A stretch of DNA of 64,000 bases, taken from assembly GCA_947038265.1 (NCBI GenBank), contig CAMQVP010000001.1, positions 124,968-188,967 on the forward strand, read 5' to 3'. Position numbers and translations under genes: made by a program. This document shows positions 10,308 through 49,313 of the stretch, in pieces. The stretch is from an uncultured Roseburia sp. Its GTDB lineage: Bacteria > Bacillota > Clostridia > Lachnospirales > Lachnospiraceae. Every line of letters starts with the position of its first letter. Within the stretch, counting starts at the first letter, position 1. The notes under the pieces are model-generated. The model saw only the letters and a program-made list of their open reading frames with translations, was not told where the DNA came from and ran no database searches.

Positions 10308-10324
10308 ATTTTATGTCAGCGTTT

Positions 10325-10408
10325 GCAGGAATGGCGGAATTGGCAGACGCGCAGGCTTCAGGTGCCTGTGGCAGCAATGTCGTGAGGGTTCAAGTCCCTT
10401 TTCCTGCA
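10325..10408 (+). tRNA. tRNA-Leu (anticodon CAG), type II with long variable arm
   Basis: Acceptor GCAGGAA pairs with TTCCTGC, the D-arm is GCGGAATTGGCAGACGC, the anticodon loop is TTCAGGT (CAG) and the T-arm reads GGTTCAAGTCC. CCA is not encoded. Confidence 0.85.
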
Positions 10409-10417
10409 TGATTTAGA

Positions 10418-10536: not shown

Positions 10537-13500
10537 TTATTTTATTTTTGCTTTTTTACTCATTCCTGAGCTTTTCAACTTCTTCAATAATTTATCCCGC
10601 TTTTTCCCCTTTAAAGATTTTGGAACTTTAACCGTCATCTTTGAAGACGTCTGTCGAAAAGCTTTTTTCTCAACCTTCTGTATTTTAGTCCCTTTAAAAA
10701 TGACATTCTCTAACTTCCTACATTTTGAAAACGCATTTTTGTCTATCCTTGTAACATTTTTTCCTATTACTGCTTTTTTAAGCTTTGAAAATTTCGAAAA
10801 AGCTTCCTTTCCAATCTTTACAACTGTATACTTTTTGCCATTCCAGTCAACCGTTGGCGGTATAACCACTTGTTTCGCTTTTTTATCTAACCCTTTTTCA
10901 AGAAGAACGGTTGACTTCTCTTTATCCAAAATTTGATACTTGAATTTATTCTTGGTAAATGTTGTTTCTTCCGGAATGATAGCTTTCTTCTGGAATTTCG
11001 CTGTCAGCGTAGTATTTCCGGTTACAGTAAAGGTGTAAGAAAGCAGTCCCGACACTTTTTTATTTCCCTGATACCAGCCGGCAAATTCATAGCCTGTATT
11101 TACCTTCGCCGTTACCGTTATCTTGCTTCCTATATCTATAGACTTTGCGCCGCCTACCGCCGTGCCGCCTGCGATTGCATTCACAGTCACCTGAGCTTTC
11201 TTCCTTTTGAATTTCGCTGTCAATACAATGTCTTCCTGAACCGTAAACGTATACGCTGCGCTCTTTGAGACTTGTTTTCCGTTACAATACCAGCCCACAA
11301 ATTCATAACCGGAACTTACCTTCGCCGTCACCGTTGCTTTGCTTCCTATTTTTGCGCTCGGATTACCGCCGATTACCATTCCGCCCTTCTCTGCCGTGAC
11401 TGTAATACTAGCGCTTTCCTTCTCTGCCGGATCGTTTTTAACAAATTTAGCAGTTAAACGAATTGATTTCTCAACGAAAAACGTATACGGATTCTCATCA
11501 GAAATCTTTGTCTCCCCTTCATACCAGCCGGCAAATTCATAGCCTTCTTCTGCTGTTGCCGTTACCGTGATTTCACTGCCGACTTCCGCTTCTTCATTCC
11601 CGCCGCTTGCCGTTCCGCCTTCTTCCGCAACCGCCTGCACCGTGACTGTCTCTCCTGTTGCCTGCTTCTTTCTGAATTTTGCCGTCAGCGTGACTGCCTT
11701 TTCTACCGTAAACGTATATACCGCTTCCGTTGACTTTTTCTCGCTTCCTTCATACCAGCCGACAAACTCATAGCCCTTATCCGCTGTTGCCGTTACCGTG
11801 ATTTCACTGCCGACTGCCGCTTCTTTCCCGCCGCTTGCCGTTCCGCCTTCTTCCGCAACCGCCTGCACCGTGACTGTCTCTCCTGTTGCCTGCTTCTTTC
11901 TGAATTTTGCCGTCAGCGTGACTGCCTTTTCTACCGTAAACGTATATACCGCTTCCGTTGACTTTTTCTCGCTTCCTTCATACCAGCCGACAAACTCATA
12001 GCCCTTATCCGCTGTTGCCGTTACCGTGATTTCACTGCCGACTGCCGCTTCTTTCCCGCCGCTTGCCGTTCCGCCTTCTTCCGCAACTGCCTGCACCGTG
12101 ACTGTTTCTCCCGCTGTCTGCTTCCGTTTAAATTTTGCCGTCAGCGTGACTGATTTTTCTACTGTAAACGTATATACCGCTTCCGTTGACTTTTTCTCGC
12201 TTCCTTCATACCAGCCAGTAAATTCATATCCCTCATTCGCTGTTGCCGTCACTGTGATTTCACTGCCGGCTTCCGCTTCTTCATTTCCGCCGCTTGCCAC
12301 GCCGCCCGTCTGCGCTTCTACCTTGACCGCAAACTTCTTCTTTTCAAACCTTGCAGTTAATGTAATTGAGGATTCCACCGTAAACGTATACGGGTTCTCT
12401 GTAGATACCCGCTGTTCTCCCTGATACCACCCTGCAAACTGATAGCCCGCGTTTGCTCTCGCCGTCACTGTGATCTGGCTTCCTATCGCCGCCGACTGTG
12501 ACTCGCCTGCCGTTCCGCCTTCTCCGGCTTCAACCGTAACTTGCGTCGGCCGGTCGAATCTGGCTTCTAAAGTGATTCCGCCTGCTGGAACACGGAATGT
12601 ATATTCTTCTTCAGAAGAAATCAAACTTCCCCCTGCAAACCAGCCGACAAAAAGGTACCCTGTATCGGGAACCGCCTGTACAGTTACCATCTCTCCCGGA
12701 GCCACGTTTGTCTGTCCGCCTGTCACTGTTCCATTTTCACCTGCCGTTACAATGACGTCTGCCTTCCTAGCAGGAATTTTAAAACTGTAAACAGAGTGCG
12801 GCAAAAGCGTATAAGTAAGATGATCGCCGCTTCCCGTTACCGTCGTCTTATCGACTGTAACCTTATCCGGTTCACTCAAAGTATTCATATCCGTCACTTC
12901 TTCCGATGACAGCGACCATATTTCTATCTCTTTTCCTGTGAAATCCGTGTTATCGACTGTAATATCCACAGTTGACGCGCTCTCACTCTTATTATTGACT
13001 GCCATCACATAGGCATTTCCATATTCATCTTTCGTCGAATAAACATTCACGTTGCTGACTGCATTATTCCCACTGCCTGTAAATACCCCATTTCCTGTAA
13101 TTGTCTGGTTCACTTCCACGCTTCCCGTCATATTGTTAAAAATGGAAAACAAACGCGCCGACGGAGTGGACACATACTGATAGCCATTGTCCGTCTGATG
13201 GGACTGGATTACGCACTGCTGCCATGCCCCTAAATTATCGCTTGCGCCTGTCGTATCCACAAGACAATGTTTATTCTGGTAAGCTGCGCCGGAATTTACA
13301 CAATCTATCATATGGTTTGCAATATAAATTGCATGGCCTAAAGAAGTCTGGTAATTACTGGCGGGGCTGACGCTTAAAATTCCAAATTCAGAAACCGCGA
13401 CTTTCTTACTGTCATCTTGTGTAAGCGACAGCATTTTATTTCTATAAGTTGCAATGTTATTAGAAAAACCTTTCGCTCTCACCAAAGAATCTTCATAGCT

Positions 13501-16500
13501 GGTTACGCCATTGCTGTATGGATGGATAATTACGCCGTCATATTTTGCATCATATCCTTTTTCGTGCATTTTATCAATAAATTCATTCTGCCGCCCATCA
13601 AAAATGCCGGAATAAATTTCAATTTCCGAACCAATTTCATCTGCAACCGCTTTCATCGCCTCATAATAGTCTACAAACCCAGACTGATCCGTTTTGTAGT
13701 TACAAGTAATCTGCGTCCCAGACGATGGAATCGCGCCATTGACCCCGTCGCCAAAGGCAATCTTCCCCGTTTCATAATCAAATGTACACACATTTGCCGC
13801 GCCTTGTCCTTCCAAAGAATCTACGATCTCCCACTTTGTCCCTCCAACAAACACTTCCGCTGTGTCTTCCACAACTGGGAGATAATAAACATACCGCTCC
13901 TCATTTGCCTTCCCATCACTCAAGGAAGCAGAAGCTCTCCAATCGCCTTTTTTCGCCACCCTGTTGTTCGTCTGATAGTAACTCGTCTGCCCCGATATCG
14001 TCATACGGTCGCCTTCAATATACAGATCCGTCACTCCCCTGTTATGTTCGCTAAGTCCAGCCATCCAGTAATTTTGCCCGGTATCGCTAAATTCATTTCC
14101 AAGCTCAAAACGGATCACCCCATAGGGTTCTTCATGCCCATTTTCCGCGCGCGCTGCCGCCCAATCAACGCCTCCGTTTGGATTGCTGCCATCATTTGGC
14201 GCATTCAGATACTCCACCAAATCTGCCGCATCCTGTGGGTTGCCGCGTCCAAAACCATAAACAAAAATCGCTTCCGAATCCAAATCATCGTAAATCCACT
14301 TCATCGCCTCATCTACGCCAAATGCCGGATCAACGGGCGTTTCCCCAGCAGCAGAATAAAAATTATTCCCTGCAATCGTCGTTGTTCTCTGTTCTTTCGG
14401 CCCAATCGTATCTTTCCATGTAAACAAATTTGACACTGTGCCGCCCGGATAACGGACTGAACCAAAATCCGCATTTTTTGCAAGTTCATTAAATGCATCA
14501 TATATTTTATCATTGTCTTTATCCCAGCTTCCATAACCGTAATTATGATAACGATGGTTAATCCCAAACATTGCAGATGGGATTTCCCTCAGTTCATCGG
14601 AAGTGTCAACTGCAATGCTCACAGGCGCGCTGGCCTCATACGCGCGGATTGCGGCTAGAAGTTCTTCCTTCTTCTCCGTGAGTGCTGTAAGCGTTGCCGC
14701 TTCATTTGACAATAACGCCTCCGTCTCTCCAATGACACGATCCAATTCTGTCTGAGCCGCCGCTGTCCCTCCGGTCAATGCCCGCGCATCAGCAATCAGA
14801 TCCCGCAATTCCCTTTTCACATTTTCCGTTTCAATCAGATCGCCATGTACATCATAAATTGTTTTCACTTCCGCCGCGCTTAATGTCCTGTTATAATAGC
14901 GAATTTCATCCATTACGCCTTTAATTGCCGGACTGTCTGCATTCTGCCTATGCGCGCCCACGCGGATATTTCCAGTGCCATCAATTAAAGCCGCGCCAAG
15001 CGCTGAATTATTCTCATTTTCCAACACGCCATTGACATATATTTTGGCTGTTCTTCCTTCACCCGCTGCATCGACTGCAATCATTACATGATGCCATTTC
15101 CCACTCTCAATGTTTGCCTCGGCATACTGATTGCTTGCCGCCAGATAGGTGCCATACCGCATTCCGCTTTCCCCATTATTTTTAATCGTCAGAATTGCCC
15201 TGCCTGCGCTCGCGCCATCTTGATGGAATACACTAATATCAGACAGTCCGCTTGCTTCCATATCGTCATATTTAATCCATGCCCCTATAGTAAATGGATT
15301 TGAGCTTGCAATCAGCTTATATTGCTCAGTCAGGTTCAATGTCAGATAAGATGCATTATTCCCGCTGAATGAGGCGCTGCCACCGGAAACTCCCGATCCT
15401 TCCTGAACCGTAACGCCATTGCCTGTCTTTAAAGCTGCAATGCCTGCCACAGACCCTTTGCTTGCCAAACGATCCGTTTCCGTATCTCCCTCAAACGTCC
15501 AATATCCCACTAAGCCATTCGAAACAACAGTATCCGGCTCGTTTCCTGCCTGCTGGTAATTTTCAATCGCCGCTGTCAAATCATTTTTCGCCGTTTGCAG
15601 CGCCGTTTTAAATGCTTCCGTTTCCGCTTGCCCTTCCCCAAGCAGCGCTTCTGCCGCCTCTTTTGCCGCCGTTAAATTCGCCACTGATTCCGAATCGCCC
15701 CCAGAGAGCGCTTCCGCTTGCGTCAAAAGAGTCCGCAAGTCCTCTTTAAGCGTATTTATTTCCAGCTTAATCCCGCCATCTCTGTAAATGGCTTCCACCG
15801 TATCGGCAGCCACAGCCGTGTCATAATAACGGATTTCATCCATAAGCCCGTCTACTGCCGAGCTTTGCGTCGCCCTATGATAGCCAACGCGGATATTTCC
15901 TCCGCGGGTTCCGTTTCCATATATTACATTTCCAGTAATCGTTTCTTCCCCTGCCAAAACTCCATTTACATAAAACCGCGCCTTTTTCTCAGTGTCCGTC
16001 TTATCAAACACAAACATAACATGATGCCATTGATTCCCCGCTATTTCCTGAGAGCTGTATTTAAGCTGTCCGCCCAAAAACGTATTGTACACATTTTTAC
16101 TATTATTCGGCGATATCGATAAAATCGGCTGTCCCGCGCTGTCTCCATCTAAATGAAACACACTTGTCGGCGTTTCATTTGTATATGAAATAGAACGGTA
16201 CTTTATCCAAGCCCCAATCGAAAAACTGCCTGTCGCCTCCGTCAGCCCAACATTCGCATCTTTCAATTTTAATGTTAGACATTTATTCGCTGTTCCTGCA
16301 AAATCCGCAGCGCCTCCCGATATGCCGCCATCCTCCGACAAACTAACCCCAGTATCCGTTTTTTCCGCAACAAGATTTTCCGTGACACTGCTTGCAAGCC
16401 ACGCATCATCTTGACTTCCCCCATCAAACGTCCAATGCCCTACAAGACCATCTGATAAGTCCACTACACTTTCCCGGTTCCCATCGCCTGTATCCTCAGC

Positions 16501-16590
16501 CGCAAGCAAAGACGCCGGAGCCTCCCCGATTGCCAAACCAAAAGACACCGCCAAAGCCAATGCGTTTCGTAATAATTTTCGTACACCCAT
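10537..16590 (-). CDS. Giant secreted multimodular surface glycoside hydrolase: signal peptide, 2x LamG (Laminin_G_3), GH51-like clan GH-A catalytic domain, ~10 Listeria-Bacteroides repeats, BspA-type LRR, Lys-rich C-terminal tail
   Basis: The protein is 2017 aa with an N-terminal signal MGVRKLLRNALALAVSFGLAIGEA.
- LamG hallmark: MDEIRYYDTAVAADTVEAIY and MDEIRYYNRTLSAAEVKTIY.
- Catalytic region: VRYPGGTVSNLFTWKDTIGPKEQR plus RFELGNEFSD, matching the GH51 RYPGGNF...GP and clan-A 'NE' acid/base motifs.
- Repeats: GYEFVGWY...YTFTV...TLTAKF units of ~76 aa.
- C-terminal LRR: KIGKEAFSKFSKLKKAVIGKNVTRIDKNAF. Confidence 0.7.
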   Translation of the reverse strand: MGVRKLLRNALALAVSFGLAIGEAPASLLAAEDTGDGNRESVVDLSDGLVGHWTFDGGSQDDAWLASSVTENLVAEKTDTGVSLSEDGGISGGAADFAGTANKCLTLKLKDANVGLTEATGSFSIGAWIKYRSISYTNETPTSVFHLDGDSAGQPILSISPNNSKNVYNTFLGGQLKYSSQEIAGNQWHHVMFVFDKTDTEKKARFYVNGVLAGEETITGNVIYGNGTRGGNIRVGYHRATQSSAVDGLMDEIRYYDTAVAADTVEAIYRDGGIKLEINTLKEDLRTLLTQAEALSGGDSESVANLTAAKEAAEALLGEGQAETEAFKTALQTAKNDLTAAIENYQQAGNEPDTVVSNGLVGYWTFEGDTETDRLASKGSVAGIAALKTGNGVTVQEGSGVSGGSASFSGNNASYLTLNLTEQYKLIASSNPFTIGAWIKYDDMEASGLSDISVFHQDGASAGRAILTIKNNGESGMRYGTYLAASNQYAEANIESGKWHHVMIAVDAAGEGRTAKIYVNGVLENENNSALGAALIDGTGNIRVGAHRQNADSPAIKGVMDEIRYYNRTLSAAEVKTIYDVHGDLIETENVKRELRDLIADARALTGGTAAAQTELDRVIGETEALLSNEAATLTALTEKKEELLAAIRAYEASAPVSIAVDTSDELREIPSAMFGINHRYHNYGYGSWDKDNDKIYDAFNELAKNADFGSVRYPGGTVSNLFTWKDTIGPKEQRTTTIAGNNFYSAAGETPVDPAFGVDEAMKWIYDDLDSEAIFVYGFGRGNPQDAADLVEYLNAPNDGSNPNGGVDWAAARAENGHEEPYGVIRFELGNEFSDTGQNYWMAGLSEHNRGVTDLYIEGDRMTISGQTSYYQTNNRVAKKGDWRASASLSDGKANEERYVYYLPVVEDTAEVFVGGTKWEIVDSLEGQGAANVCTFDYETGKIAFGDGVNGAIPSSGTQITCNYKTDQSGFVDYYEAMKAVADEIGSEIEIYSGIFDGRQNEFIDKMHEKGYDAKYDGVIIHPYSNGVTSYEDSLVRAKGFSNNIATYRNKMLSLTQDDSKKVAVSEFGILSVSPASNYQTSLGHAIYIANHMIDCVNSGAAYQNKHCLVDTTGASDNLGAWQQCVIQSHQTDNGYQYVSTPSARLFSIFNNMTGSVEVNQTITGNGVFTGSGNNAVSNVNVYSTKDEYGNAYVMAVNNKSESASTVDITVDNTDFTGKEIEIWSLSSEEVTDMNTLSEPDKVTVDKTTVTGSGDHLTYTLLPHSVYSFKIPARKADVIVTAGENGTVTGGQTNVAPGEMVTVQAVPDTGYLFVGWFAGGSLISSEEEYTFRVPAGGITLEARFDRPTQVTVEAGEGGTAGESQSAAIGSQITVTARANAGYQFAGWYQGEQRVSTENPYTFTVESSITLTARFEKKKFAVKVEAQTGGVASGGNEEAEAGSEITVTATANEGYEFTGWYEGSEKKSTEAVYTFTVEKSVTLTAKFKRKQTAGETVTVQAVAEEGGTASGGKEAAVGSEITVTATADKGYEFVGWYEGSEKKSTEAVYTFTVEKAVTLTAKFRKKQATGETVTVQAVAEEGGTASGGKEAAVGSEITVTATADKGYEFVGWYEGSEKKSTEAVYTFTVEKAVTLTAKFRKKQATGETVTVQAVAEEGGTASGGNEEAEVGSEITVTATAEEGYEFAGWYEGETKISDENPYTFFVEKSIRLTAKFVKNDPAEKESASITVTAEKGGMVIGGNPSAKIGSKATVTAKVSSGYEFVGWYCNGKQVSKSAAYTFTVQEDIVLTAKFKRKKAQVTVNAIAGGTAVGGAKSIDIGSKITVTAKVNTGYEFAGWYQGNKKVSGLLSYTFTVTGNTTLTAKFQKKAIIPEETTFTKNKFKYQILDKEKSTVLLEKGLDKKAKQVVIPPTVDWNGKKYTVVKIGKEAFSKFSKLKKAVIGKNVTRIDKNAFSKCRKLENVIFKGTKIQKVEKKAFRQTSSKMTVKVPKSLKGKKRDKLLKKLKSSGMSKKAKIK
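11540..12250. repeat. Three near-identical ~228-bp tandem DNA repeats (each = one 76-aa Listeria-Bacteroides repeat) inside the giant CDS
   Basis: Antisense ORFs at 11567, 11798 and 12026 translate to almost identical peptides. The only differences are one 3-bp indel and a few substitutions. The coding-strand unit is ATGETVTVQAVAEEGGTASGGKEAAVGSEITVTATADKGYEFVGWYEGSEKKSTEAVYTFTVEKAVTLTAKFRKKQ. Confidence 0.85.
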
Positions 16591-16983
16591 ACAAATTCTC
16601 CTTTCTCAAAAAACTATATCCACGTCAATTTTAACATAAATTCAAGAAAAATAATATATATTTTATACATTTTTTCAATTTACTCTTTTATCAACATATT
16701 TTTTCCCAAAATTCTGTTTAAAAAATGGCGCAAGGCATTCCGCCCTGCGCCATTTACAAAAATTACAACTGTTCTTTACAAGTCGCCTTTCCCGTTCCTT
16801 ATTCCATTTTCCTTTAAAACAGAACACCTGTCTGCCCTTCAGTCTAACAATGAACTCTATTCCTACATTCTTACTAATTTACGCCCTTTCGCATTACTCA
16901 TTTTCATATTCTCCTTTTCAAAAACATAAAAATGCTTCTGCCCATATATAAATAATATCATTTCTATGCGCGTCACTATCCCG

Positions 16984-33026: not shown

Positions 33027-35120
33027 TTAGCCTTTTCCTAAATAGAGCAGATAAATCAACGTAAATACAAGCCCTACATAAAACAGAAGCAATCCAAACG
33101 ACAAACTCCTTTGGATAATCGTATTTGTTTCCATAATTTTTTCCCTCTGCATTGCAAGTCTATGCTCAAAAGATACTTCATGCTCCGGCGCAGGCCGCCT
33201 TAAAATCCGGCGTTTCTTATTCCTCAGCCAGTCCAGCGCCTCGCCAAGCAAATGCGTAAACTCCGAGCCCTCCGGCAGTTCGTGTGGAATCTTACGGTCA
33301 CGATATATGGTTTTCCGCAATAATACCACAATCCCGTCCACAAGACTGTCAAAAATCCTGCAAAACACTCTTGCCAAAAATGGAAGCGCTGTAAGCAAAA
33401 GCGGCCGGTAAATCAATCCTTCCATATCAAGCCAGTCTGGCCAGCAGTTGCGGTATTCACGAATCCCTTGTTTCTCCGCCATAAGGAATTTACGGATACA
33501 CCAGTATAACGCCGCCCCAATTCCAATCGAAATCAGCCCGCCTTTTAAGTTTTCGAAACTAAAATAAGAAACTGCATGGATTTCCCCATTAAAATTCATA
33601 AATCCCTGTCCCAAATCTGCAATTTTGTCCGTCACAAGATGAGGCAAAAATCCAAGAACCGGAAGGATTGCCGAACTTCCCACAATCGCAAACGCGCTGA
33701 TTGGATTCATATACTTTCTCATGCCGTCAAACCGCTTCTGTTCCTTTACGCTGCTGTTTTTCTCTACAAAGAGGGCAACATATAATTTCGTCATATAAGC
33801 AAGCGTCATTCCGCCGCTAAATAAAAACACCCACTCTGCCGCTTTCAAAAAACCAGACAATTCCACAGCCAGTTCTGCGCCTTCCACAATGCTTTCATGC
33901 AGAAGCGTTTTGCTGATATACCCGTTAAACAGCGGAATGCCCGAAATCCCAAGCGCGCCTGCAAGGAAACAGGCGTTTAACAACGGCTTTTTCCTGCCAA
34001 ATCCCCGAATGTCATTCAAATCCAGTTTATGCAGATTCATAACGACAACTCCGGCAATCATAAAAAGCGCCAGTTTAATCAACGAATGGTTCACCATATG
34101 CAAAAGAGTCCCACGCGCGGCAAGCCCGTTTTCTTCGCCTAAAATCCCCTGCATCCCAATGCCTGTCAGGATAAAACCAATCTGTGACATGGAAGAACAT
34201 GCAAGCGTCCGTTTCAAATCCACAGAAAACACTGCCAAAAGCGCGCCGCCAAACATTGTGCAAAGACCTAAAAAGAGCAACAGCAGCCCCCACCTCTGGT
34301 CATGCAAAAAAATATTACTGCTGACAGCCAAAATGCCAAAAACGCCCGCTTTTGTTAAAATGCCGGACAACAGCGCAGAAGCCGGAGCCGGAGCGACCGG
34401 ATGGGCTTTTGGAAGCCAGATATGCAGTGGAAACGCCCCCGCTTTTGCCCCAAATCCAACCAATGCGCAAACGCCCGCAATATATAAAACGCCCTTATCT
34501 TCGCAGGCGGCAGCCGCAGAGAGCAATTCAGACATTTCAAGCGTCCCAAGCGTATGATAAAGCAAAAACAATCCCATCAAAAGAACCAATCCGCCAATTA
34601 CGGCAACTGCCAGATACGTCTCGGCCGCTTTTAACGCGCCCTTCGTTTCTTCCTGCGCCACCCAGACATAGGAAGTAAAGGACATAATTTCAAAAAAGAT
34701 AAATGTCGTAAATAAATCCGCAGATAAGAACACCCCAAGCGTCGCATTCAGCGTAACCAACTGAAAAAAATAATATCTTCCCAAATGCTTCTCATGCCCC
34801 AGATATTCCCGTGAAAATAAAAGCGTCATCATCCACATAAAGGCTGCTACAATCCCATATACGCCGCGAAACCCGTCAAGGCAAAAATGCAGTCCGAGCC
34901 CGCAAATGCCCGGCGCATACAATTCACTTCCCATGCCCTGCTGCGCCAAAATGCACATTAAGATAAATATAAACGCTCCCGCGCCGATTGCCAGCGCATC
35001 CCTAAGATTTCTAAAAGCCGCGTTCTGTTCCGCCGCCTTTTGCGCCTTCCAGTCCGCCAGAAAAACCGCCGCTGCCGCTGCCGACGGAACGGTAAGCAGA
35101 GCCATATACAATCCTTCCAT
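33027..35120 (-). CDS. MrpA/NuoL-type antiporter-like subunit with C-terminal lateral amphipathic helix and terminal TM anchor
   Basis: A Proton_antipo_M core reads GFGAKAGAFPLHIWLPKAHPVAPAPASALLSGILTKAG. A ~200-aa C-terminal extension ends in a TM segment (SLSFGLLLFYVGLVFTLIYLL). I trimmed the start to the ATG after AGGAGG at 35120. Confidence 0.7.
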   Translation of the reverse strand: MEGLYMALLTVPSAAAAAVFLADWKAQKAAEQNAAFRNLRDALAIGAGAFIFILMCILAQQGMGSELYAPGICGLGLHFCLDGFRGVYGIVAAFMWMMTLLFSREYLGHEKHLGRYYFFQLVTLNATLGVFLSADLFTTFIFFEIMSFTSYVWVAQEETKGALKAAETYLAVAVIGGLVLLMGLFLLYHTLGTLEMSELLSAAAACEDKGVLYIAGVCALVGFGAKAGAFPLHIWLPKAHPVAPAPASALLSGILTKAGVFGILAVSSNIFLHDQRWGLLLLFLGLCTMFGGALLAVFSVDLKRTLACSSMSQIGFILTGIGMQGILGEENGLAARGTLLHMVNHSLIKLALFMIAGVVVMNLHKLDLNDIRGFGRKKPLLNACFLAGALGISGIPLFNGYISKTLLHESIVEGAELAVELSGFLKAAEWVFLFSGGMTLAYMTKLYVALFVEKNSSVKEQKRFDGMRKYMNPISAFAIVGSSAILPVLGFLPHLVTDKIADLGQGFMNFNGEIHAVSYFSFENLKGGLISIGIGAALYWCIRKFLMAEKQGIREYRNCWPDWLDMEGLIYRPLLLTALPFLARVFCRIFDSLVDGIVVLLRKTIYRDRKIPHELPEGSEFTHLLGEALDWLRNKKRRILRRPAPEHEVSFEHRLAMQREKIMETNTIIQRSLSFGLLLFYVGLVFTLIYLLYLGKG

Positions 35121-35131
35121 ATGAAATCCTC

Positions 35132-36607
35132 CTAAAAACTCCCCTCTGCAACCGCTGTTACAATTTCCATAAACGGAGCAGAATGCAGCCCAAACACTGC
35201 CATGCCCGCCACAAAAATAAACAATGGCGCAAGCATCAGCCAATTCGGGTCTTTGACGTCTTTTATCGTATTATAATCAAAATCCGCGCTTGGAAAATAT
35301 GCCCGCGCAACAATCGTCAGCATATACATTGCCGTAAGAAGGGCAGAGACTAATAAAGCGCCCACGCCAACATAAGCAATGACTTCTTCACTTTCCAATG
35401 CGGCAGAAGCCAGATTCCACTTACTGATAAACCCACATAAACCGGGCACGCCCATCAGCGCAAGAGAAGAAACCGTAAACACCGCAAACACCTTTGGCAT
35501 TTTTCTTCCAAACCCATCTAACTGATGGATATAATGGCGCTCTGTCTGATGCATAATGGCGCCCGCGCAAAAAAAGGATGCGATTTTCATAAACGCATGG
35601 AACACCATATGGCTTAAAGCCGCCGCCAGCCCAAGCGGAGTCATAATTGTCACGCCAAATAAAATATAAGACAGATTACTGATTGTCGAATATGCAAGGC
35701 GGCGTTTCAAATGCGTCTCTTTTAGCGCCATACTGCATCCATAGACAACCGTAAACATCACTACCGCCATCAGAAGATATTGCGCCCACGTCCCTTTCAA
35801 AAAACCAACGCCAAAACAGTAAAATGTCAGACGCATAATTGCAAACGCGCCGGATTTTACGACTGCCACTGCATGAAGAAGCGCCGTTACCGGCGTAGGC
35901 GCAACGCCTGCCTGAGGCAGCCATGAATTAAGCGGGCAGATTGCCGCTTTTACGCCAAAGCCAAAAAAACTGAATACATAAATCAAAAGAAAAATATTCT
36001 CATGGCCCACAATCGCTTCGGGATTTAACACCCCACCTAATGCAAAATCTGAAGTCTGCCCAAATACCAGAATAAAAATCATGCCGATAAAAGCAAACGC
36101 CGCGCCGCCAATCGAATAATACAAATACTTCCGGCTTGCCAAAACCGCCTCCCGCGTCAGCGTGTGCATAACTAAAGGAACTGTCACAAGCGTAAGCATT
36201 TCATAAAAGCAATACATTGTCAGAAAATTATCCGCTAAAGCAATCCCAAGCGTTACCCCGTAAGTAATCGTATAAAACATGAAAAACACTTTCTCATGTT
36301 TCTCTTTTGTCATATATTCAAACGAATACAACACGGCAAGCGGCCATAAAAAAGAAATCAATCCTGCAAAAATACAGCCAAGCCCGTCTAACTGAAAAGC
36401 GATTTTTAAATTTCCGGCAAAATTTAAAAGCGTAAAAGACCCGTCCGGACGGTTTAATAAAAGCATCCAGACCAGCGCCGAAGTAAGCGTTACGACAAAC
36501 TCCAGATAAATCAGCATATAAATCCGCTTTTTCCAAGGGATAACCGCCGTCAGGGCGCCGCCAATGCAGGGAATCAGTATTACGATAAATAAATAAATTG
36601 CGCTCAT
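35132..36607 (-). CDS. MrpD/NuoN/NuoM-like antiporter subunit (copy 3)
   Basis: The protein is 491 aa with 14 TM segments and reads PLNSWLPQAGVAPTPVTALLHAVAVVKSGAFAIMRL. Confidence 0.75.
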   Translation of the reverse strand: MSAIYLFIVILIPCIGGALTAVIPWKKRIYMLIYLEFVVTLTSALVWMLLLNRPDGSFTLLNFAGNLKIAFQLDGLGCIFAGLISFLWPLAVLYSFEYMTKEKHEKVFFMFYTITYGVTLGIALADNFLTMYCFYEMLTLVTVPLVMHTLTREAVLASRKYLYYSIGGAAFAFIGMIFILVFGQTSDFALGGVLNPEAIVGHENIFLLIYVFSFFGFGVKAAICPLNSWLPQAGVAPTPVTALLHAVAVVKSGAFAIMRLTFYCFGVGFLKGTWAQYLLMAVVMFTVVYGCSMALKETHLKRRLAYSTISNLSYILFGVTIMTPLGLAAALSHMVFHAFMKIASFFCAGAIMHQTERHYIHQLDGFGRKMPKVFAVFTVSSLALMGVPGLCGFISKWNLASAALESEEVIAYVGVGALLVSALLTAMYMLTIVARAYFPSADFDYNTIKDVKDPNWLMLAPLFIFVAGMAVFGLHSAPFMEIVTAVAEGSF

Positions 36608-36619
36608 AGATTCCCCTCC

Positions 36620-38092
36620 TTACATCACTTGGGCGGCAAACGCCGCAAATTCTTCTGTCAGCCCATTTGGCAAAACGCCAATGAGAATTGTCAAAACCGC
36701 CAACGCAAGCAGGGGAACAAGCATAAGATAAGACGGTTCTTTGCCTGCAAACCGTTTCCAGTCATACCCTTCCCCCGGAAAAAACCCTTGCATCGTAACC
36801 GGAAGAAGATAACCCGCCGTAAGCAGCGCGCTGACTAAAAGCGTAACAGGCCCAAGCCACGAAAAAACAGCCATTCCGGAATCAAGCGCCCCCGTCGCCA
36901 AATACCATTTGCTAATAAACCCGCTTAAAGGCGGAATCCCAATCAGCCCCAGTGAAACAATCGTATAACACCAGATTGTCACAGGCATTCCCTTTCCAAT
37001 GCCCCTTAAATCTTCCACCCGCGTCGCGCCTGTCCGGTAAATCACCGCCGATGCGCCCAAAAACAGAGCCGTTTTTATAAACGCGTGAGCCGCCACATGC
37101 AAAAGAGATCCGGTCAGCGCCTGCGGCTGCATAACCGATAACCCAAACAAAATATAGGAAAGCTGGCTGACTGTTGAATACGCAAGCCGCTTTTTTAACA
37201 CAGGCTCTCTGAATGCAAGCATGGAACCCATAAACACCGTGATAAGCGTTAATGCCATCCACACCGTCTGCACAATGCTCCCGCGTAAAAACTCAACGCC
37301 GATAAGCTGGTAAACCACACGGATAACCGCCAATACGCCGCCCTTTACAATAATGCCGGACAACACGGCGGATGCAGGCCCCGGAGCGACCGGATGCGCG
37401 GCAGGAAGCCACGCGTGCAATGGAAACATGCCTGCTTTTACGCCAAATCCTATCAGCATACACATCGTGACTGTCAAAAACAACGCGCTATGCTGCTGCA
37501 AAACGCCTGCTTCAATTACGCCGCCTGCCGTAAATTCAAGCGTCGTCCCATAACGGGAAATAAAATAAACGCCAAACAACGCCATATATGCGCCCGCAAA
37601 TGAAAAGAAAAGGTATTTCAAAGCCGCCATCACCGCTTCCCTTGACTGGTTATGCAGGACAAGCGGCATGGAAGTCAGCGTCATAAACTCATAAAACAGA
37701 TACATGGTAATCAAATTTCCTGAAAAATCCAGACCAATCAATACGCCAAATACAATCAGGTAAAATGCGTAATACCGTTTTTCATTTTTTTCATGCTTCA
37801 TATATTCAAAGGAAAAAAAGCCCGCTAAAATCCAGACAATGACAACGACAAACGTAAAAAACTTTCCCAGCATATCCAGCTTAAAATAAACCGGAAGCGT
37901 CTTAGTCAGGTAAAATAAAGTCACGCCGCCCTCCACTGCAAAAATCCCATAGATTGCTAAAATACCGCTGACAAGCAGAATGCTTCCCACAAAAACAAGC
38001 AATGTTTTCCTCTGTTTAAATTCCTTTTTAAACAATAATGCAATCCCTGCCAGAATTGGGCAAAATACCGGCCAAAGCAACAGTTGCTCCAT
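36620..38092 (-). CDS. MrpD/NuoM-like antiporter subunit (copy 2)
   Basis: The protein is 490 aa and reads GVKAGMFPLHAWLPAAHPVAPGPASAVLSGIIVKGG. Confidence 0.75.
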   Translation of the reverse strand: MEQLLLWPVFCPILAGIALLFKKEFKQRKTLLVFVGSILLVSGILAIYGIFAVEGGVTLFYLTKTLPVYFKLDMLGKFFTFVVVIVWILAGFFSFEYMKHEKNEKRYYAFYLIVFGVLIGLDFSGNLITMYLFYEFMTLTSMPLVLHNQSREAVMAALKYLFFSFAGAYMALFGVYFISRYGTTLEFTAGGVIEAGVLQQHSALFLTVTMCMLIGFGVKAGMFPLHAWLPAAHPVAPGPASAVLSGIIVKGGVLAVIRVVYQLIGVEFLRGSIVQTVWMALTLITVFMGSMLAFREPVLKKRLAYSTVSQLSYILFGLSVMQPQALTGSLLHVAAHAFIKTALFLGASAVIYRTGATRVEDLRGIGKGMPVTIWCYTIVSLGLIGIPPLSGFISKWYLATGALDSGMAVFSWLGPVTLLVSALLTAGYLLPVTMQGFFPGEGYDWKRFAGKEPSYLMLVPLLALAVLTILIGVLPNGLTEEFAAFAAQVM

Positions 38093-38104
38093 GTCTCTCT
38101 CCTC

Positions 38105-39595
38105 CTATGCAAAAACGGATAATCCCTGCGCAATCCAGTCCGTAATCGGCTGTGAACACATGCCAAGCACAACATTCAATATAATAAACAACAACAGCGT
38201 AACGGCATACGCCGGATTTTCCTTCCATGACGCCGATGCGTATTTGCCATGCGCCGGAGTATAAATCCGAATCACTGTTTTCATAAAATAAATGGTATTT
38301 AAAATCGTGCTGATGGCAAGGGCAATTAACGTCGGAAGCACTTTATGTTCATTTAAAATCGCCGCTTGTGAAAACAAAAGCTTACTGACAAATCCAGAAA
38401 AAACCGGAATGCCTACCATAGAAAGCGAACCGACGGTAAACGCAAGACCTGCGCATATATTGCGGTAAGCCGAGCCGGTCAGCTCCAAAAACTCCTTATG
38501 GCCCCCCGACACATCAGTAAGGCCCGAACCGGAAACAAACAAAAGTGATTTTGTCGCCGCATGGGACAGCATATGGAACACAGACGCCACCATGCCGACC
38601 GCCGTGCCAAGCCCAAACCCCATATAGATATAGCCAATCTGCGCCACAGATGAAAATGAAATCATTCTGCGAATGTCATTTTCCCGTATTGCGCTCAAAG
38701 AGCCCATAATCATGCCGGCAAGGCCAAACACAAAAAGAACATTAATAATTTTACTGTCCCTAAATGTATCAAATCCTATTACGCGGTAAATAATCTTAAT
38801 CAGTAAAAAAATATACCCTTTTGAAACAAGGCTTGACAAAATCGCCGCGGAAGAAACCGTGGAATACCCATAAGCGTTCGGGAGCCACGCATGGAACGGA
38901 AACAGCGCGCTTTTAATTGCAAGCCCGACGACAATCAGCGCAATCGTAACTAAAAGCGGCGTATGGTACGTCCCGTTTGCCACAATCGCATCAATGCCCG
39001 CCTTGATATTGCTCATTAAAAGATGCCCTGTCAAATCGTAAAGCAGGCAGATTCCAATTAAAAAAAGCCCGGAACCCAATAGGCTCATAATCATATAACG
39101 CGTTGCCGCTTCAATCGTATGCCCCCGCTCCGTAATCATAATTAATCCGCAGGCGGAAATTGTATTTATCTCTACAAAAACATACGCAGTAAACAAGTCG
39201 TTCGTATACACAAGCGCCAAAAGAGAACTCAAAAGCAAATCCACCATAATGTAATAGAGGTTTTCCTTGGCGGGATTGATTTCAAGCAGTAATTTCTTTC
39301 TTCCCCCATTTAAAGAAAGCATCATAATTACACAGAAAAATAACGCCATTCCGGCTTCTAAAGAACCAAAACGGATTTCATTCCCAAACGGCGCCGGAAA
39401 ATGCCCCATCACATAGACATAGCTTTCTTTTGTCGTGATCGTCAAATACAATACGGCAAATGACAAGACGCTGACTGCCGCTATTACAAAGGAATTAAGC
39501 CATCTTGCTCCCCTGCCTTTCAACGCTGAACTGATAATCGCCGCAAACATGCACAGCAGGATTGAAAGGCATGGGAAATTTTTTATTATCTCCAT
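38105..39595 (-). CDS. MrpD/NuoL-like antiporter subunit (copy 1)
   Basis: The protein is 496 aa and reads SALFPFHAWLPNAYGYSTVSSAAILSSLVSKGYIF. Confidence 0.75.
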   Translation of the reverse strand: MEIIKNFPCLSILLCMFAAIISSALKGRGARWLNSFVIAAVSVLSFAVLYLTITTKESYVYVMGHFPAPFGNEIRFGSLEAGMALFFCVIMMLSLNGGRKKLLLEINPAKENLYYIMVDLLLSSLLALVYTNDLFTAYVFVEINTISACGLIMITERGHTIEAATRYMIMSLLGSGLFLIGICLLYDLTGHLLMSNIKAGIDAIVANGTYHTPLLVTIALIVVGLAIKSALFPFHAWLPNAYGYSTVSSAAILSSLVSKGYIFLLIKIIYRVIGFDTFRDSKIINVLFVFGLAGMIMGSLSAIRENDIRRMISFSSVAQIGYIYMGFGLGTAVGMVASVFHMLSHAATKSLLFVSGSGLTDVSGGHKEFLELTGSAYRNICAGLAFTVGSLSMVGIPVFSGFVSKLLFSQAAILNEHKVLPTLIALAISTILNTIYFMKTVIRIYTPAHGKYASASWKENPAYAVTLLLFIILNVVLGMCSQPITDWIAQGLSVFA

Positions 39596-39969
39596 TATCG
39601 TTCTTCCCTCTTTACTCTTATCGAAATTTCATCTAAATCCAACGTATGATATCTGCGGTAAAGCCGGATTGTCAGAGAAAGCATAAGCGCCGTCACCGAC
39701 ACCGACACGACAATCCCCGTCAGCACAAGGCCGCTTGGCACCGGATTGATATACGTTTCCGGGCTTACATCGCCGTTTACCACTATCGGCGCAATATGCC
39801 CGGCGATATAGCCTTTTTCCGCAAGAAACAGATAAACGGCAGTGTCCATAATATTCAATCCGATAATCTTTTTTATCATATTTTTCTGTAAAAGCAGGTT
39901 TGTAAATCCAATTCCAAACAATAGAATCGCCACCGCTTCCGCATAGTTTGCAAGCAGATGTCCGCCCAT
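39595..39969 (-). CDS. MrpC/MnhC (NuoK-like) subunit
   Basis: The ~124-aa protein has 3 TM segments and reads AILLFGIGFTNLLLQKNMIKKIIGLNIMDTAVYLFL. Its stop and start overlap the flanking genes by 1 nt each. Confidence 0.7.
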   Translation of the reverse strand: MGGHLLANYAEAVAILLFGIGFTNLLLQKNMIKKIIGLNIMDTAVYLFLAEKGYIAGHIAPIVVNGDVSPETYINPVPSGLVLTGIVVSVSVTALMLSLTIRLYRRYHTLDLDEISIRVKREER

Positions 39970-40931
39970 TATAATCCTCCCCTCCGAAACAACGCGTAAA
40001 ACGCATACATAGTGCATGCCACTTCCGATCCGACAAAAATATTAATTGGAAGCGTAATGCCGCCGCTTAAAATCTTTCCGGCTTTTCCCAGCGGGATAAT
40101 ACTCTCTAATCCGTTCGCGCCGGTCAGGAAATAATACGTCACGATACAGCCATAACAGATTAACGCCGTCACCTTAATACATTTATAAACCTTTTCATTA
40201 AAAAACTTCTCCGTCTTATCAAAACCGAACGCCGCAACATATAAAATCATGCCCGCCCCAATCATCGCCCCTCCGGAAAAACCGCCGCCCGGCGATAAGT
40301 GCCCGTTTAAAATAATATAGATCCCAAACAAAAACACCAACGGAACGATAAGCGTCGCAACTTTCTTTAAGATTAAATTATTCTTCGGCTCAAAGCCACG
40401 ATCGTTCGACTCCTTATTTTCCCGAATTTTATCCTCATCTACCATCAGCATAATCATGACGCAGCAAGTCGCAATAAACAGCACATTCGTCTCACCAAAC
40501 GTATCAAACGCGCGGTACGAAAGAATCATGCCCGTAACGATATTGACGGCTCCCGTATCTTTTAAGCCATCTGATATATAAGTCTCCGATACAATATTAT
40601 TCGTCGGTTTATCTTCCGCCCCAACGCTTGGCAGATAGGAAACCATATACACCAGCACAAATACCAAAGCAATGCAAAAGACTACGCTCATACACTTATA
40701 TAGGACATTAAAAAATTTCAATTCTTTATTGTGCCTTCTGTCATACACTTCCGACAAAGCCTGCCTTCTGTCTCTTAAACGTTCTTCAATCGTCGTTTCC
40801 GCTTCGGCATACTCCTTCTGGGGATGCATTTCCATATTTCCCATAAATGCATCTTTTTCTCCGCCCAGCCATCTGAAAAAATGAAACGCAAACGTTTTTT
40901 CGTATTCACTCTGTTTCCTGATATGGCTCAT
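39969..40931 (-). CDS. MnhB/MrpB-related subunit (MbhE/F-like)
   Basis: The MnhB signature ILNGHLSPGGGFSGGAMIGAG is present. The start sits at an ATG after AGGAGGA. Confidence 0.7.
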   Translation of the reverse strand: MSHIRKQSEYEKTFAFHFFRWLGGEKDAFMGNMEMHPQKEYAEAETTIEERLRDRRQALSEVYDRRHNKELKFFNVLYKCMSVVFCIALVFVLVYMVSYLPSVGAEDKPTNNIVSETYISDGLKDTGAVNIVTGMILSYRAFDTFGETNVLFIATCCVMIMLMVDEDKIRENKESNDRGFEPKNNLILKKVATLIVPLVFLFGIYIILNGHLSPGGGFSGGAMIGAGMILYVAAFGFDKTEKFFNEKVYKCIKVTALICYGCIVTYYFLTGANGLESIIPLGKAGKILSGGITLPINIFVGSEVACTMYAFYALFRRGGL

Positions 40932-41190
40932 CGTCCTCCTCCTTTTCCGCTTCTTGGCGCAGCGCATGGATTTTTTTCAGCGTGACAAAAAACAAAATAC
41001 TCGTCACTCCGGCGCCAACCGCCGCTTCCGTAATCGCAAGATCCGGAGATTCCAGCAATATCCAGATAATCGACATAATCAGGCTGTATGACATAAAAAT
41101 CAAAATTGAATTTAAAAGGTTTTTTGAAAAACTGACCGAAACAGCGCAGACAATCAAAAAGCCGAGCAAAATCATATTAAATATCTGCAT
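40906..41190 (-). CDS. DUF4040 (MrpA C-terminal / MrpB N-terminal, MbhD-like) small membrane subunit
   Basis: The 94-aa protein has 3 TM segments, reads ILLESPDLAITEAAVGAGV and ends in an acidic tail. Confidence 0.6.
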   Translation of the reverse strand: MQIFNMILLGFLIVCAVSVSFSKNLLNSILIFMSYSLIMSIIWILLESPDLAITEAAVGAGVTSILFFVTLKKIHALRQEAEKEEDDEPYQETE

Positions 41191-42789: not shown

Positions 42790-43034
42790 AGAAAAATAAG
42801 GATATAATTCAAAAATTTCGAGACCATTTTCGGATATGCCTTAACAGGGTTTTTTCTGCTGAAAGCATAACACATCTTCATTTGTCTTTCAATTAGTTTC
42901 ACTTTTCCTCTTTTTTATGAAACAGTGTTAAAAATTTTTATGTAGATTTTTACAAAAAAATATAATAAAATATCAAAAAAGAGGTTATATAGTATATTTT
43001 TTATACTGCATAACTTAATATAGGAGAAATGATA

Positions 43035-45486: not shown

Positions 45487-45554
45487 AAACGAAAGCACAA
45501 AGAGCAATCAGTAACGGTTGCTCTATTTTTATGCATTTTACGGAGGCACAGATT

Positions 45555-46760
45555 ATGAAAAAAAGAAGTAATGGAGAAGGCACAATCTGCAAAAGGAATG
45601 ATGGAAGATGGATGGCTCAAATCCTCATTGATACCGGATATGGAGAATTTAAAAGGAAAACCGTATATGGAAAAACACAGCGTGAAGTGAAAGAAAAATT
45701 AGAGCAGTTAAAATCAGACCAAAAACAAGGCCGGGTAATTGAAACTTCGGATATGCCTTTAGAACAGTGGATGAATATCTGGATTACAAATTATAAACCG
45801 GATTTGAAGATTACAACAAGAGAAGATTATGAATCCTATATTAATACGCATATCCGAGGATCAGATTTAGGAAAGATTCCTTTGAACAAATTAAAAACAA
45901 CGGATCTGCAATCATTTTATAACAATAAGCTTGCCGGAACCTGCAAAGGTCAAAAGAAGAAATTATCACCAACCACAGTCCGGTATATTCATGTAATTAT
46001 CAAAAGTGCGTTAAATCAGGCAATTCAAAACCGGATGATAAACAACAATGCTGCAAATGCAGTCGTTCTCCCAAAAAAGAACAAGACGGAAATCATTCCT
46101 CTCACGCAGGAAGAAGTAATCCGCTTCCTTGAAACCGCAAGAGGGGATCGGCTATATGCACTATATTTGCTGGAAATGATGACCGGATTACGAAAAGGAG
46201 AAATTTTAGGCTTACAATGGAATGACATTGATTTTAAATGCAAAAGAATTACTGTTTCGCATAATCTCTGCCGGATTAAAAGCCGAAATAAAAATGCAGG
46301 AAAAAAATATGAATTAATCCTGATGAATCCTAAAACAGCAACCTCCAAAAGATGTATTCCCATCAATGATTTTATGGCTGACGAACTGCAAAAACATAAA
46401 TTGCACCAGATGAAAGAAAAAGAATTATACGGTGACTATTACAATGACCTTGGAATGGTTTTTTGCAAGCCAGACGGAAACTACATTTATTCCAGGGATT
46501 TTCTAAGACAATATCAAAATCTCCTTTCTAAAGCCGGTCTGGAAAAAAAACGGTTCCACGACTTGCGCCATACAGTAGCCAGCCTGCTTATCAATGCAAA
46601 TGAAAATCCTAAAATGATACAACAATTACTCGGCCACTCAAATATAAGCACTACACTGGATATTTATGCGCATGTAATGGACAAGTCCATGAATAAAAGC
46701 GTGGATAAAATCTATCAGCAGCTAGGTTTAAATTCCATACCCCAAAAAAAGAATCCCTAA
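45555..46760 (+). CDS. int: Tyrosine site-specific integrase (phage integrase family)
   Basis: The N-terminal SAM-like domain reads MKKRSNGEGTICKRNDGRWMAQI. The catalytic motifs read FHDLRHTVASLL (HxxR) and LLGHSNISTTLDIYAHV (the nucleophile Tyr). The start sits at an ATG after CGGAGG. Confidence 0.92.
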   Translation: MKKRSNGEGTICKRNDGRWMAQILIDTGYGEFKRKTVYGKTQREVKEKLEQLKSDQKQGRVIETSDMPLEQWMNIWITNYKPDLKITTREDYESYINTHIRGSDLGKIPLNKLKTTDLQSFYNNKLAGTCKGQKKKLSPTTVRYIHVIIKSALNQAIQNRMINNNAANAVVLPKKNKTEIIPLTQEEVIRFLETARGDRLYALYLLEMMTGLRKGEILGLQWNDIDFKCKRITVSHNLCRIKSRNKNAGKKYELILMNPKTATSKRCIPINDFMADELQKHKLHQMKEKELYGDYYNDLGMVFCKPDGNYIYSRDFLRQYQNLLSKAGLEKKRFHDLRHTVASLLINANENPKMIQQLLGHSNISTTLDIYAHVMDKSMNKSVDKIYQQLGLNSIPQKKNP

Positions 46761-46881
46761 TACAGTAAGCCTGCCACTGGCCAGCCTTTCTGCATACTGA
46801 GACAGTATAAGAAGCCTATGAACTACTTAGCTTTCATAGGCTTCCTATTTGATTTCTCATTTTTAAAAACAAGGCTGTCTA

Positions 46882-47775: not shown

Positions 47776-48043
47776 AGTAATCTCCTTTGTGTGGTTAAAT
47801 TATAACATACCTTTCATAATTTCCGCAACCGCCCAAATCTCTACATTAAATTACCTTAGCAGGTATATAAATTTTCCATGTATCGGAAACGGCTGCAGGA
47901 TTTAGATTCCACAGCCGCTTCTGCTTCTTTTTCTTATTCCTCATTCCCATCCTTAGACAAAAGCGCGAGAACCGCCGTCAATATCCCCGCTACAACCGCC
48001 TTGATGATATGCTCCATAATTCCAACCGCCTTTCTGCGCTGCT

Positions 48044-49272: not shown

Positions 49273-49313
49273 GTCCTGCCTCCTGAAAATCCCATGGGGA
49301 TTTTGTCCATCCA

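Follow-up and report, generated by a model that had tools for sequence, protein, structure and literature searches.

The window analysed in this study, a 64,000-nucleotide (nt) stretch of an uncultured Roseburia sp. genome (contig CAMQVP010000001.1), carries on its reverse strand a gene for a 2017-amino-acid (aa) multimodular protein. On sequence and model evidence, its catalytic module is a glycoside hydrolase family 51 (GH51) fold with the retaining machinery of clan GH-A, in which E833 is the predicted acid/base and E1068 the predicted nucleophile, and the protein is very probably a surface-displayed retaining hydrolase of this fold. Overall, the evidence leans towards a cell-surface retaining GH51-type glycosidase, possibly for sulfated glycans. 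Gut-microbiome annotation treats GH51 as a plant arabinofuranosidase family, and the 'GH51' proteins of mucin degraders are an open question raised in two studies (PMC12834350, PMC12997984), which the window protein makes testable. It offers a widely sampled representative of an unexplained branch, with a signature (an inserted domain and the motif G-x-N-H-R-Y), a confident model and a sulfatase neighbourhood among its homologs. The inserted domain, the genomic context of the homologs and the folded nature of the C-terminal tail are new relative to a preliminary description of this DNA.

Catalytic module, active site and inserted domain

The catalytic module was compared with solved structures by single-sequence, profile and fold searches. 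A phmmer search against the PDB retrieved GH51 entries only (16 matches at E ≤ 1e-6, the best being 2vrk at 7.5e-11), and a profile built from 63 homologs matched GH51 at E 3.7e-58 (3s2c). The inserted domain separates the profile match into one block at profile positions 38-232 and another at 341-638. The AlphaFold2 (AF2) model obtained from the same alignment had a predicted local distance difference test score (pLDDT) of 94.2 and a predicted template modelling score (pTM) of 0.94, and Foldseek ranks 1-46 of this model were all GH51 (best E 1.4e-36, target TM 0.80-0.82). The NCBIfam arabinofuranosidase model ArfA gave a partial match (E 3e-20) whose 72.6 bits lie far below the equivalog cut-off of 625, and the Pfam ASD1_dom match was weak. 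The Pfam family Alpha-L-AF_C (PF06964) scored 26.7 bits (E 7.4e-6), marginally under its gathering threshold of 27; the fold and profile data support homology of the C-terminal sandwich to the GH51 C-terminal domain despite this sub-threshold score.

The motifs RYPGG, ELGNE and EFG were found at residues 713, 829 and 1068, respectively. In the homolog alignment N832 and E833 are invariant (E833 in 63 of the 63 sequences), and E1068 is kept in 61. The preliminary description had proposed a clan GH-A core resembling GH51 and had named GH30, GH79 or GH39, or missing catalytic glutamates, as outcomes that would speak otherwise. Sequence, profile and Foldseek comparisons all put GH51 first, and both glutamates are present. 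Among the other families tried, GH79 came next after GH51, though far behind it in the fold comparison (6e-21, compared with 1e-36 for GH51), GH30 was weaker, and GH39 and GH44 reached profile-search E values no better than 0.003-0.006. GH159 and the 'GH51_dist' group of the CAZyme-discovery literature were also set aside, as the papers offer no tie to the insert-bearing subfamily described below.

The GH51 arabinofuranosidases of Thermotoga maritima (Tm-AFase, 3ug3), T. petrophila (3s2c), Thermobacillus xylanilyticus (2vrk) and Geobacillus (AbfA, 1pz3) have in common with the window module the two-domain fold, the order of its elements and the glutamate pair, together with the motifs G-N-E, R-x-P-G-G, G-x-D-E, H-x-Y and N-G-H-P-x-P-Y. 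These enzymes are cytoplasmic, oligomeric, single-module proteins of about 500 aa, whereas the window module is about 120 aa longer and part of a secreted multidomain protein. It also differs by an insert of about 113 aa after β4, by G-x-N-H-R-Y in place of G-H-F-x-E-H, by G-G-T in place of G-G-N and by the lack of a conserved β8 glutamine. The β1 glutamate of canonical GH51 aligns with arginine R680 (or with N678, two positions before it); in the signature columns, Asn is found in 62, His in 54 and Arg in 55 of the 63 sequences. The asparagine following R-x-P-G-G corresponds to T718 (Thr in 51/63), and the β8 glutamine corresponds to C1109, in a column that is not conserved in the subfamily. 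According to the hidden Markov model (HMM) alignment, the columns of R680, T718 and C1109 are those of AbfA E29, N74 and Q351, while R713, N832, H1023 and Y1025 are kept in the columns of AbfA R69, N174, H244 and Y246. These seven AbfA residues (E29, R69, N74, N174, H244, Y246 and Q351) belong to the −1 subsite that binds α-L-arabinofuranose.

A network analysis by the CAZy curators distributed all 83 characterised GH51 enzymes over three large subfamilies, which separate at E 1e-58, and left nine small subfamilies without any functional evidence (PMC10461819). The single-sequence similarity of the window module to characterised GH51 enzymes had an E value of about 1e-10 and, for the arabinofuranosidases, covered the N-terminal half only. 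Compared with the 1e-58 threshold, this value would place the module outside the characterised subfamilies and makes the transfer of function from them weak.

The domain inserted after β4 is β-rich and carries the motif T-G-x-I-x-F-G-D-G-x-x-G-x-I-P, in which G942, F946, G947, G952 and P955 are invariant. It was matched to a baseplate J-like protein (PDB 9gtp, chain 1K) at E 3.8e-11 with the whole-module profile and at 8.9e-9 with the profile of the insert alone, and 9 of the 22 inserts searched matched the baseplate wedge subunit family phrog_219 (best E 1.1e-5). As a single sequence the insert of the window protein had no match in Pfam or the PDB, the putative relation to baseplate J being visible to profiles alone. 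On these profile matches, the insert and the baseplate proteins appear to have in common a domain of about 110 aa with the pattern T-G-x-I-x-F-G...G-x-x-G-x-(I/V)-P-x-x-G-x-x-I; unlike them, the window domain sits inside an enzyme barrel, and the rest of the protein shows no baseplate likeness. It probably forms one wall of the substrate cleft.

A search of 1.84 billion cluster representatives with the insert profile gave 152 matches at E ≤ 1e-30, 576 at ≤ 1e-10 and 4793 at ≤ 1e-3, and the best of them hold the insert at the position expected for this GH51 branch. Together, the counts and the position indicate that the insert defines a modest, distinct GH51 subfamily, which by these sequence matches comprises a few hundred 50%-identity clusters. 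Many of its members are secreted and stand alone, with a length of about 640 aa. Five further proteins (P0185, P0186, P0204, P0216 and P0315) contain three to five tandem copies of the insert core (profile positions ~38-123), so that the domain would also be a repeated module outside GH51. A GH51-like group of about 540 aa (P0116-P0120) is insert-free and shares the block A-A-D-L-V-E-Y-L-N...N-G-H-P-x-P-Y...E-I-G-N-E; judged by sequence, it may be the nearest insert-free relative of the subfamily.

Homologs, gene neighbourhoods and candidate substrates

Mouse-gut Lachnospiraceae metagenome-assembled genomes (MAGs) and Hominisplanchenecus murintestinalis hold the nearest relatives of the window protein, whose catalytic modules are 85-67% identical to its own. 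Homologs with 35-42% identity occur in [Ruminococcus] torques, Clostridium perfringens, C. celatum, C. paraputrificum, Candidatus Limousia, Faecalimonas and Bifidobacterium jacchi, and those with about 31% identity in Paenibacillus, soil Bacteroidota and Actinomycetota. Three of these carriers, R. torques, Limousia and C. perfringens, are mucin degraders, and the sole homologs found in R. torques and Limousia belong to the insert-bearing subfamily. In the neighbour-joining (NJ) tree, the window clade is sister to a clade with R. torques, Limousia, B. jacchi and C. paraputrificum. The R. torques GH51 protein (EDK24445.1) and the dockerin-bearing one of Candidatus Limousia pullorum are 35-40% identical to the window protein across the module, insert included. 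All three share the order LamG, helical linker and catalytic module, followed in R. torques by Flg_new-type repeats. The R. torques protein differs by a sortase-type signal, one LamG and five repeats, and the Limousia protein by its dockerin; both have a longer insert and neither has the basic leucine-rich repeat (LRR) module.

An R. torques GH51, assigned with dbCAN v12 and listed with the function 'Unknown', was produced on porcine gastric mucin (PMC12834350), and an R. torques GH51 was up-regulated in a mucin-fed community (PMC11632381). GH51, to which Limousia proteins were likewise assigned with dbCAN v12, is also part of the predicted Limousia 'mucinolysome', whose authors noted that mucin degradation by GH51 has not been shown (PMC12997984).

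At 41 homolog loci, the closest two genes on either flank of the homolog were screened (127 proteins). Sulfatase was by far the commonest neighbour family, with 12 of the 127 proteins and, in addition, one sulfatase-fucosidase-like fusion. By tblastn, sulfatases were located near the homologs of C. paraputrificum and a relative, four Paenibacillus species, a Ruminococcaceae MAG, Howiella and four Bacteroidota loci, and deep branches of the NJ tree also hold sulfatase-linked members. Other neighbours included GH123 and GH20 proteins with CBM32-type or F5/8-type C domains. The Paenibacillus chitinolyticus locus (L084:5190-13060) comprises a solute-binding protein and two permeases (an ATP-binding cassette importer), a sulfatase and the homolog with SLH domains; a GH29 fucosidase and an FGE gene are close by. 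The C. paraputrificum locus (L035:219-8283) comprises a sulfatase, LacA, LacB, a class II bisphosphate aldolase, a PfkB kinase and the homolog; by analogy, this gene set suggests a tagatose-6-phosphate (galactose-type) pathway. The sulfatases of these two species are 50% identical, carry the formylglycine motif CMPAR and are without a signal peptide, so that both are probably cytoplasmic. The pairing of a sulfatase gene with a GH51-like gene is thus seen in two Firmicute families. Among solved structures, the Bacteroidota neighbour sulfatase was closest to 6hhm (annotated as an arylsulfatase) and to human iduronate-2-sulfatase, while no close relative of the Firmicute one was found. These structure matches point to no particular sulfated sugar.

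On this evidence, sulfated glycans are a tentative substrate, somewhat short of an even chance; candidates are host glycans of mucin or keratan type and sulfated glycans from the diet or from algae. Plant arabinan or arabinoxylan is probably not the substrate. The preliminary description had suggested arabinofuranosides, arabinoxylan or arabinan and had left the specificity open. That openness is borne out; an arabinose substrate has become doubtful in view of the uncharacterised insert-bearing branch, the three differing pocket columns and the links to sulfatases and mucin degraders. Under the favoured explanation of a surface glycosidase for sulfated glycans, the two N-terminal LamG domains on helical linkers would bring the enzyme to the glycan and the barrel would cleave a terminal sugar by a double-displacement (retaining) mechanism. 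The eight Flg_new repeats would form a stalk of variable length, and the basic LRR module would hold the protein non-covalently on the anionic cell envelope. The sulfated sugar or oligosaccharide would be released, imported and then desulfated.

A narrower and more speculative proposal, to which we give a minor chance, is that the whole branch consists of surface 'sulfoglycosidases' that would need no prior desulfation to take a sulfated sugar, such as sulfated galactose, from glycans of mucin, keratan or algal type. The insert and the replacement of the β1 glutamate by Arg/Asn would then provide the sulfate pocket, and the co-conserved cytoplasmic sulfatase would desulfate the imported product. 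If true, this proposal would explain the presence of 'GH51' in the mucin specialists R. torques, Limousia and C. perfringens. Bifidobacterium bifidum BbhII (GH20) is a sulfoglycosidase releasing a sulfated monosaccharide from mucin. It may serve as a working model, being an extracellular, cell-attached exo-glycosidase with lectin-type modules that takes off a sulfated sugar which has not first been desulfated; it differs in fold and family, and the analogy draws on gene neighbourhood.

Several observations weigh against a role in sulfated-glycan use at the cell surface. About two thirds of the homolog loci had no sulfatase within 6 kb, the sulfatase-linked homologs are just 31-37% identical to the window protein, and the four Bacteroidota loci count for less because sulfatases are common in Bacteroidota anyway. 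No sulfatase, second copy of the enzyme or sugar-utilisation gene was found in the 64-kb window, and the immediate neighbours of the gene are exclusively housekeeping genes. The active-site comparison is built on an HMM alignment, a short β1 segment and residue roles known from Geobacillus AbfA. No characterised member or enzymology of the insert-bearing subfamily was found in the literature, and LRR_5 modules are not known to bind cell walls. The R. torques homolog EDK24445.1 is only probably RUMTOR_01174 of PMC12834350, a tag mentioned in one paper. Finally, UniRef and JGI label the homologs as arabinofuranosidases, and α-L-arabinofuranosidases make up 76 of the 83 characterised GH51 enzymes (PMC10461819).

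The last two points favour an ordinary extracellular α-L-arabinofuranosidase, possibly with β-D-galactofuranosidase side activity, that trims dietary arabinoxylan, arabinan or arabinogalactan, the insert and LamG domains being adaptations to plant polymers. We regard this as a serious rival, somewhat less likely than the sulfated-glycan reading. In its favour, the closest solved structures are all GH51 arabinofuranosidases, the catalytic pair is kept along with R713, N832, H1023 and Y1025, and plant-fibre degraders abound among the gut Lachnospiraceae, to which the host belongs. Against it, neither the window gene nor the screened homologs have arabinose or xylan utilisation genes beside them, and sulfatase is the top neighbour family. 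Mucin specialists carry homologs, and an R. torques GH51 is produced on mucin. Moreover, three columns aligned to arabinofuranose-binding positions differ, and the similarity to characterised enzymes is far below the subfamily threshold.

An endo-acting glycanase resembling the GH51 endoglucanase subfamily, with the insert opening or extending the cleft, is improbable. The family does include characterised endo-β-1,4-glucanases and a distant member active on lichenan, and a large insert beside the acid/base could turn a pocket into a cleft. The best sequence and fold matches, however, belong to the exo-acting arabinofuranosidase group, the cellulose-binding modules typical of the endoglucanase subfamily were absent from the Pfam matches, and the neighbourhoods give no pointer to β-glucan.

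BspA-type LRR and InlB-type repeats are typical of adhesins. A protein that is mainly an adhesin, binding host or food surfaces through its LamG, Flg_new and LRR modules and retaining the GH51-like module as a weak or inactive glycan binder, is nevertheless very improbable. Non-catalytic binding or repeat modules make up about 70% of the protein and repeat number varies from strain to strain, as in adhesins. Against this reading, the catalytic glutamate pair, the preceding asparagine and numerous residues of the pocket show little or no variation in 63 diverse homologs, which argues for selection for catalysis, and in many homologs the module stands alone, at about 640 aa, without adhesin-type domains.

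Should the sulfated-glycan reading be true, automatic 'arabinofuranosidase' calls for this branch in metagenome surveys would be wrong, and a new route for the use of sulfated host glycans in Firmicutes would be at hand. Should it be wrong, the window protein would still be a model for the recruitment of a phage-baseplate-type domain into an enzyme barrel and for the display of Lachnospiraceae enzymes without sortase, SLH or dockerin.

Binding modules, stalk and C-terminal LRR module

The order of the modules is given in Table 1. The N-terminus, read by eye, has a basic n-region, a hydrophobic core and an A-x-A-like end. Pfam Laminin_G_3 matched two stretches (E 4.8e-35; 121.4 bits against a cut-off of 27.6), and the second LamG domain is an internal duplicate of the first with 39% identity. 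Regions equivalent to the first helical linker are annotated as FIVAR in homologs. Flg_new_2 matched eight stretches (E 9e-107, 349.6 bits), as did Flg_new, and the NCBIfam model TIGR02543 scored 104.3 bits. The eight stalk units are centred on GW[YF] and each is about 72-77 aa long; at the protein level, units 4 and 5 do not differ. At the DNA level, a tandem array was found at 11516-12298 (period 228, 3.4 copies, 93% matches). The repeat number is polymorphic: the window protein has 8 units, its 1941-aa strain variants have 7 and the closest ortholog at species level (2768 aa; L002:1552-9858) has 14, which suggests recombination within the 228-bp array. The stalk is slightly acidic, unlike the basic C-terminal module.

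The C-terminal module was identified by Pfam LRR_5 at residues 1922-1993 (E 2.9e-11; 43.8 bits against a cut-off of 27.7). The AF2 model of the last 150 residues had a pLDDT of 88.5, and the best Foldseek matches were the gut-bacterial LRR surface proteins 4gt6 (Faecalibacterium prausnitzii) and 4oju (Pseudoflavonifractor capillosus), with which the fold is shared. Unlike these, the window LRR is short, very basic, terminal and attached to an enzyme. With 44 K/R against 12 D/E, its net charge is about +32. The protein ends in KSLKGKKRDKLLKKLKSSGMSKKAKIK. In the model, this end consists of a strand (1986-1988), a 12-residue helix (1996-2007) and a terminal strand capping the LRR solenoid (pLDDT 84-88). 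It is near-identical, residue for residue, in the nearest ortholog, and its pattern is kept in Hominisplanchenecus, another Lachnospiraceae MAG and an unrelated LRR_5 fragment ('...KAPKKKLKAYKKLLKKAGM'); a basic terminal unit resembling K-K-L-K-x-Y-K-K-L-L-K-K-A-G recurs in other LRR_5 proteins. A word-indexed search with the C-terminal 148 aa returned two fragments, and conservation of the tail was judged from the ortholog loci, the fragment match and the model.

No SLH, dockerin, cohesin or Gram-positive anchor family was detected by Pfam in the 2017-aa protein even at E ≤ 1, nor was an LPXTG-like motif or a hydrophobic C-terminal segment. Distant homologs end in LPXTG-like signals, SLH domains (P0024, P0053) or a dockerin (P0015, P0022, L029, L042), and in close orthologs the C-terminus is either this basic LRR or a Fn3-like module that is just as basic. 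Because homologs carry sortase, SLH or dockerin elements at the same position, the basic LRR module may be regarded by analogy as a retention device, and the chances for non-covalent anchoring through it appear evenly balanced.

Most of the preliminary account of these modules agrees with the present results, namely the two lectin-like LamG domains, the BspA-type LRR, and the lack of a sortase, SLH or dockerin-cohesin anchor (neither the Pfam nor the motif scan having shown one). The repeat stalk is likewise real, with eight units instead of the roughly ten counted at the time. The Lys-rich C-terminus had been viewed as a possible retention tail; the end is indeed Lys-rich, and on the model it is a folded LRR unit and not a free tail, so that retention would involve the whole +32 module.

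In most close orthologs (L003-L009, L013-L016), LRR_5 is replaced by a Lys-rich Fn3-like end ('...GYLIYRSYKKNKGYKKIAEIKKAGTKKYLDKKAKKGKTAYYKIKSYK...KKKR'), and a module of this kind also terminates the other LRR protein of the window (52323-56057). It may be a lineage-specific cell-surface retention module.

Gene structure and other features of the window

The open reading frame (ORF), 2017 codons and a stop, begins with ATG, and its earlier placement and reading as a large secreted multimodular protein hold, given the signal-like N-terminus and the Pfam modules. At least 22 public metagenome contigs, up to 317 kb long, carry the identical protein, which excludes an assembly artefact. A sigma-70-like hexamer pair upstream is a promoter candidate by pattern match alone. 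Beyond the stop codon, RNA folding gave a hairpin of -34.4 kcal/mol (z = -6.9) with a weak T-tract, which a simple terminator scan did not list. The gene is flanked upstream by a HAD hydrolase gene and purD/purN/purM, and downstream by tRNA-Leu, a class IV aminotransferase gene and spoVAD. The tRNA-Leu gene (anticodon CAG, 10324-10409, forward strand) lies about 130 nt past the stop codon on the opposite strand, before the aminotransferase gene. Given the promoter candidate, the 3' hairpin and the unrelated housekeeping flanks, the gene looks monocistronic.

Table 1. Features of the 2017-aa protein and its gene (positions in the window)
Feature	Residues	Position	Strand	Basis
Whole ORF, 2017 aa + stop	1-2017	10537..16590	-	ORF reading; exact protein on at least 22 public contigs
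Candidate sigma-70-like promoter, TTGAAA-16-TATTAT		16651..16678	-	Consensus scan, 10/12 matches
Ribosome-binding site AAAGGAG, 7 nt upstream of start		16598..16604	-	Read from sequence
Putative Sec-type signal peptide, MGVRKLLRNALALAVSFGLAIGEAPASLLA	1-30	16501..16590	-	Inferred from sequence
LamG / concanavalin-like lectin domain 1	38-271	15778..16479	-	Pfam Laminin_G_3; NCBIfam TafC-like 38-271
Ala/Glu-rich helical linker 1	272-352	15535..15777	-	Sequence composition
LamG domain 2	353-580	14851..15534	-	Pfam Laminin_G_3, best stretch 425-576; Laminin_G_2 at 489-565
Helical linker 2	581-655	14626..14850	-	Sequence composition
GH51-type catalytic module (621 aa), (β/α)8 barrel + C-terminal β-sandwich	656-1276	12763..14625	-	phmmer, profile, AF2, Foldseek
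Subfamily signature NHRY, end of β1 (canonical GH51: F-T-E-H)	678-681	14548..14559	-	HMM alignment to 3s2c
Predicted general acid/base E833, G-N-E motif, end of β4	833	14092..14094	-	Aligned to GNE Glu of 2vrk, 3s2c
Inserted β-rich domain (~113 aa), after β4	~860-972	13675..14013	-	Uncovered by GH51 chains; matches baseplate-J/wedge
Predicted nucleophile E1068, V-S-E-F-G, end of β7	1068	13387..13389	-	Aligned to D-E-W Glu of 2vrk, 3s2c
C-terminal β-sandwich of catalytic module	1127-1266	12793..13212	-	Pfam Alpha-L-AF_C; aligned to GH51 C-terminal domain
Stalk of eight Flg_new_2 / Listeria-Bacteroides repeats	1277-1867	10990..12762	-	Pfam, 8 stretches
BspA-type LRR module	1868-2017	10540..10989	-	Pfam LRR_5, AF2, Foldseek
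'Polybasic tail', last strand-helix-strand unit of LRR module	1983-2017	10540..10644	-	AF2, conservation
Terminator-like hairpin, 17-bp stem, starting 10 nt past stop codon		10488..10527	-	RNA fold

A second large surface protein of 1244 aa, in which LRR_5 matches four stretches and the C-terminus is Fn3-like and very basic, is encoded at 52323-56057 on the reverse strand, in a region with a G+C content of 0.54-0.56 against about 0.44. Beside it (45531-52067) are genes for a phage-type integrase (45531-46760), a YqaJ recombinase, DUF932 and DUF5688, and the stretch with the integrase and the LRR protein is probably an integrated mobile element. A 735-aa ORF with no Pfam match lies in a stretch of low G+C content (0.34-0.36) just before the integrase gene (43029-45236, forward strand). 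A cluster resembling Mrp/Mbh-type antiporters, with Proton_antipo_M, three ORFs of about 490 aa and MnhB/MbhE, was found at 33027-40967 on the reverse strand and is unrelated to the glycosidase.

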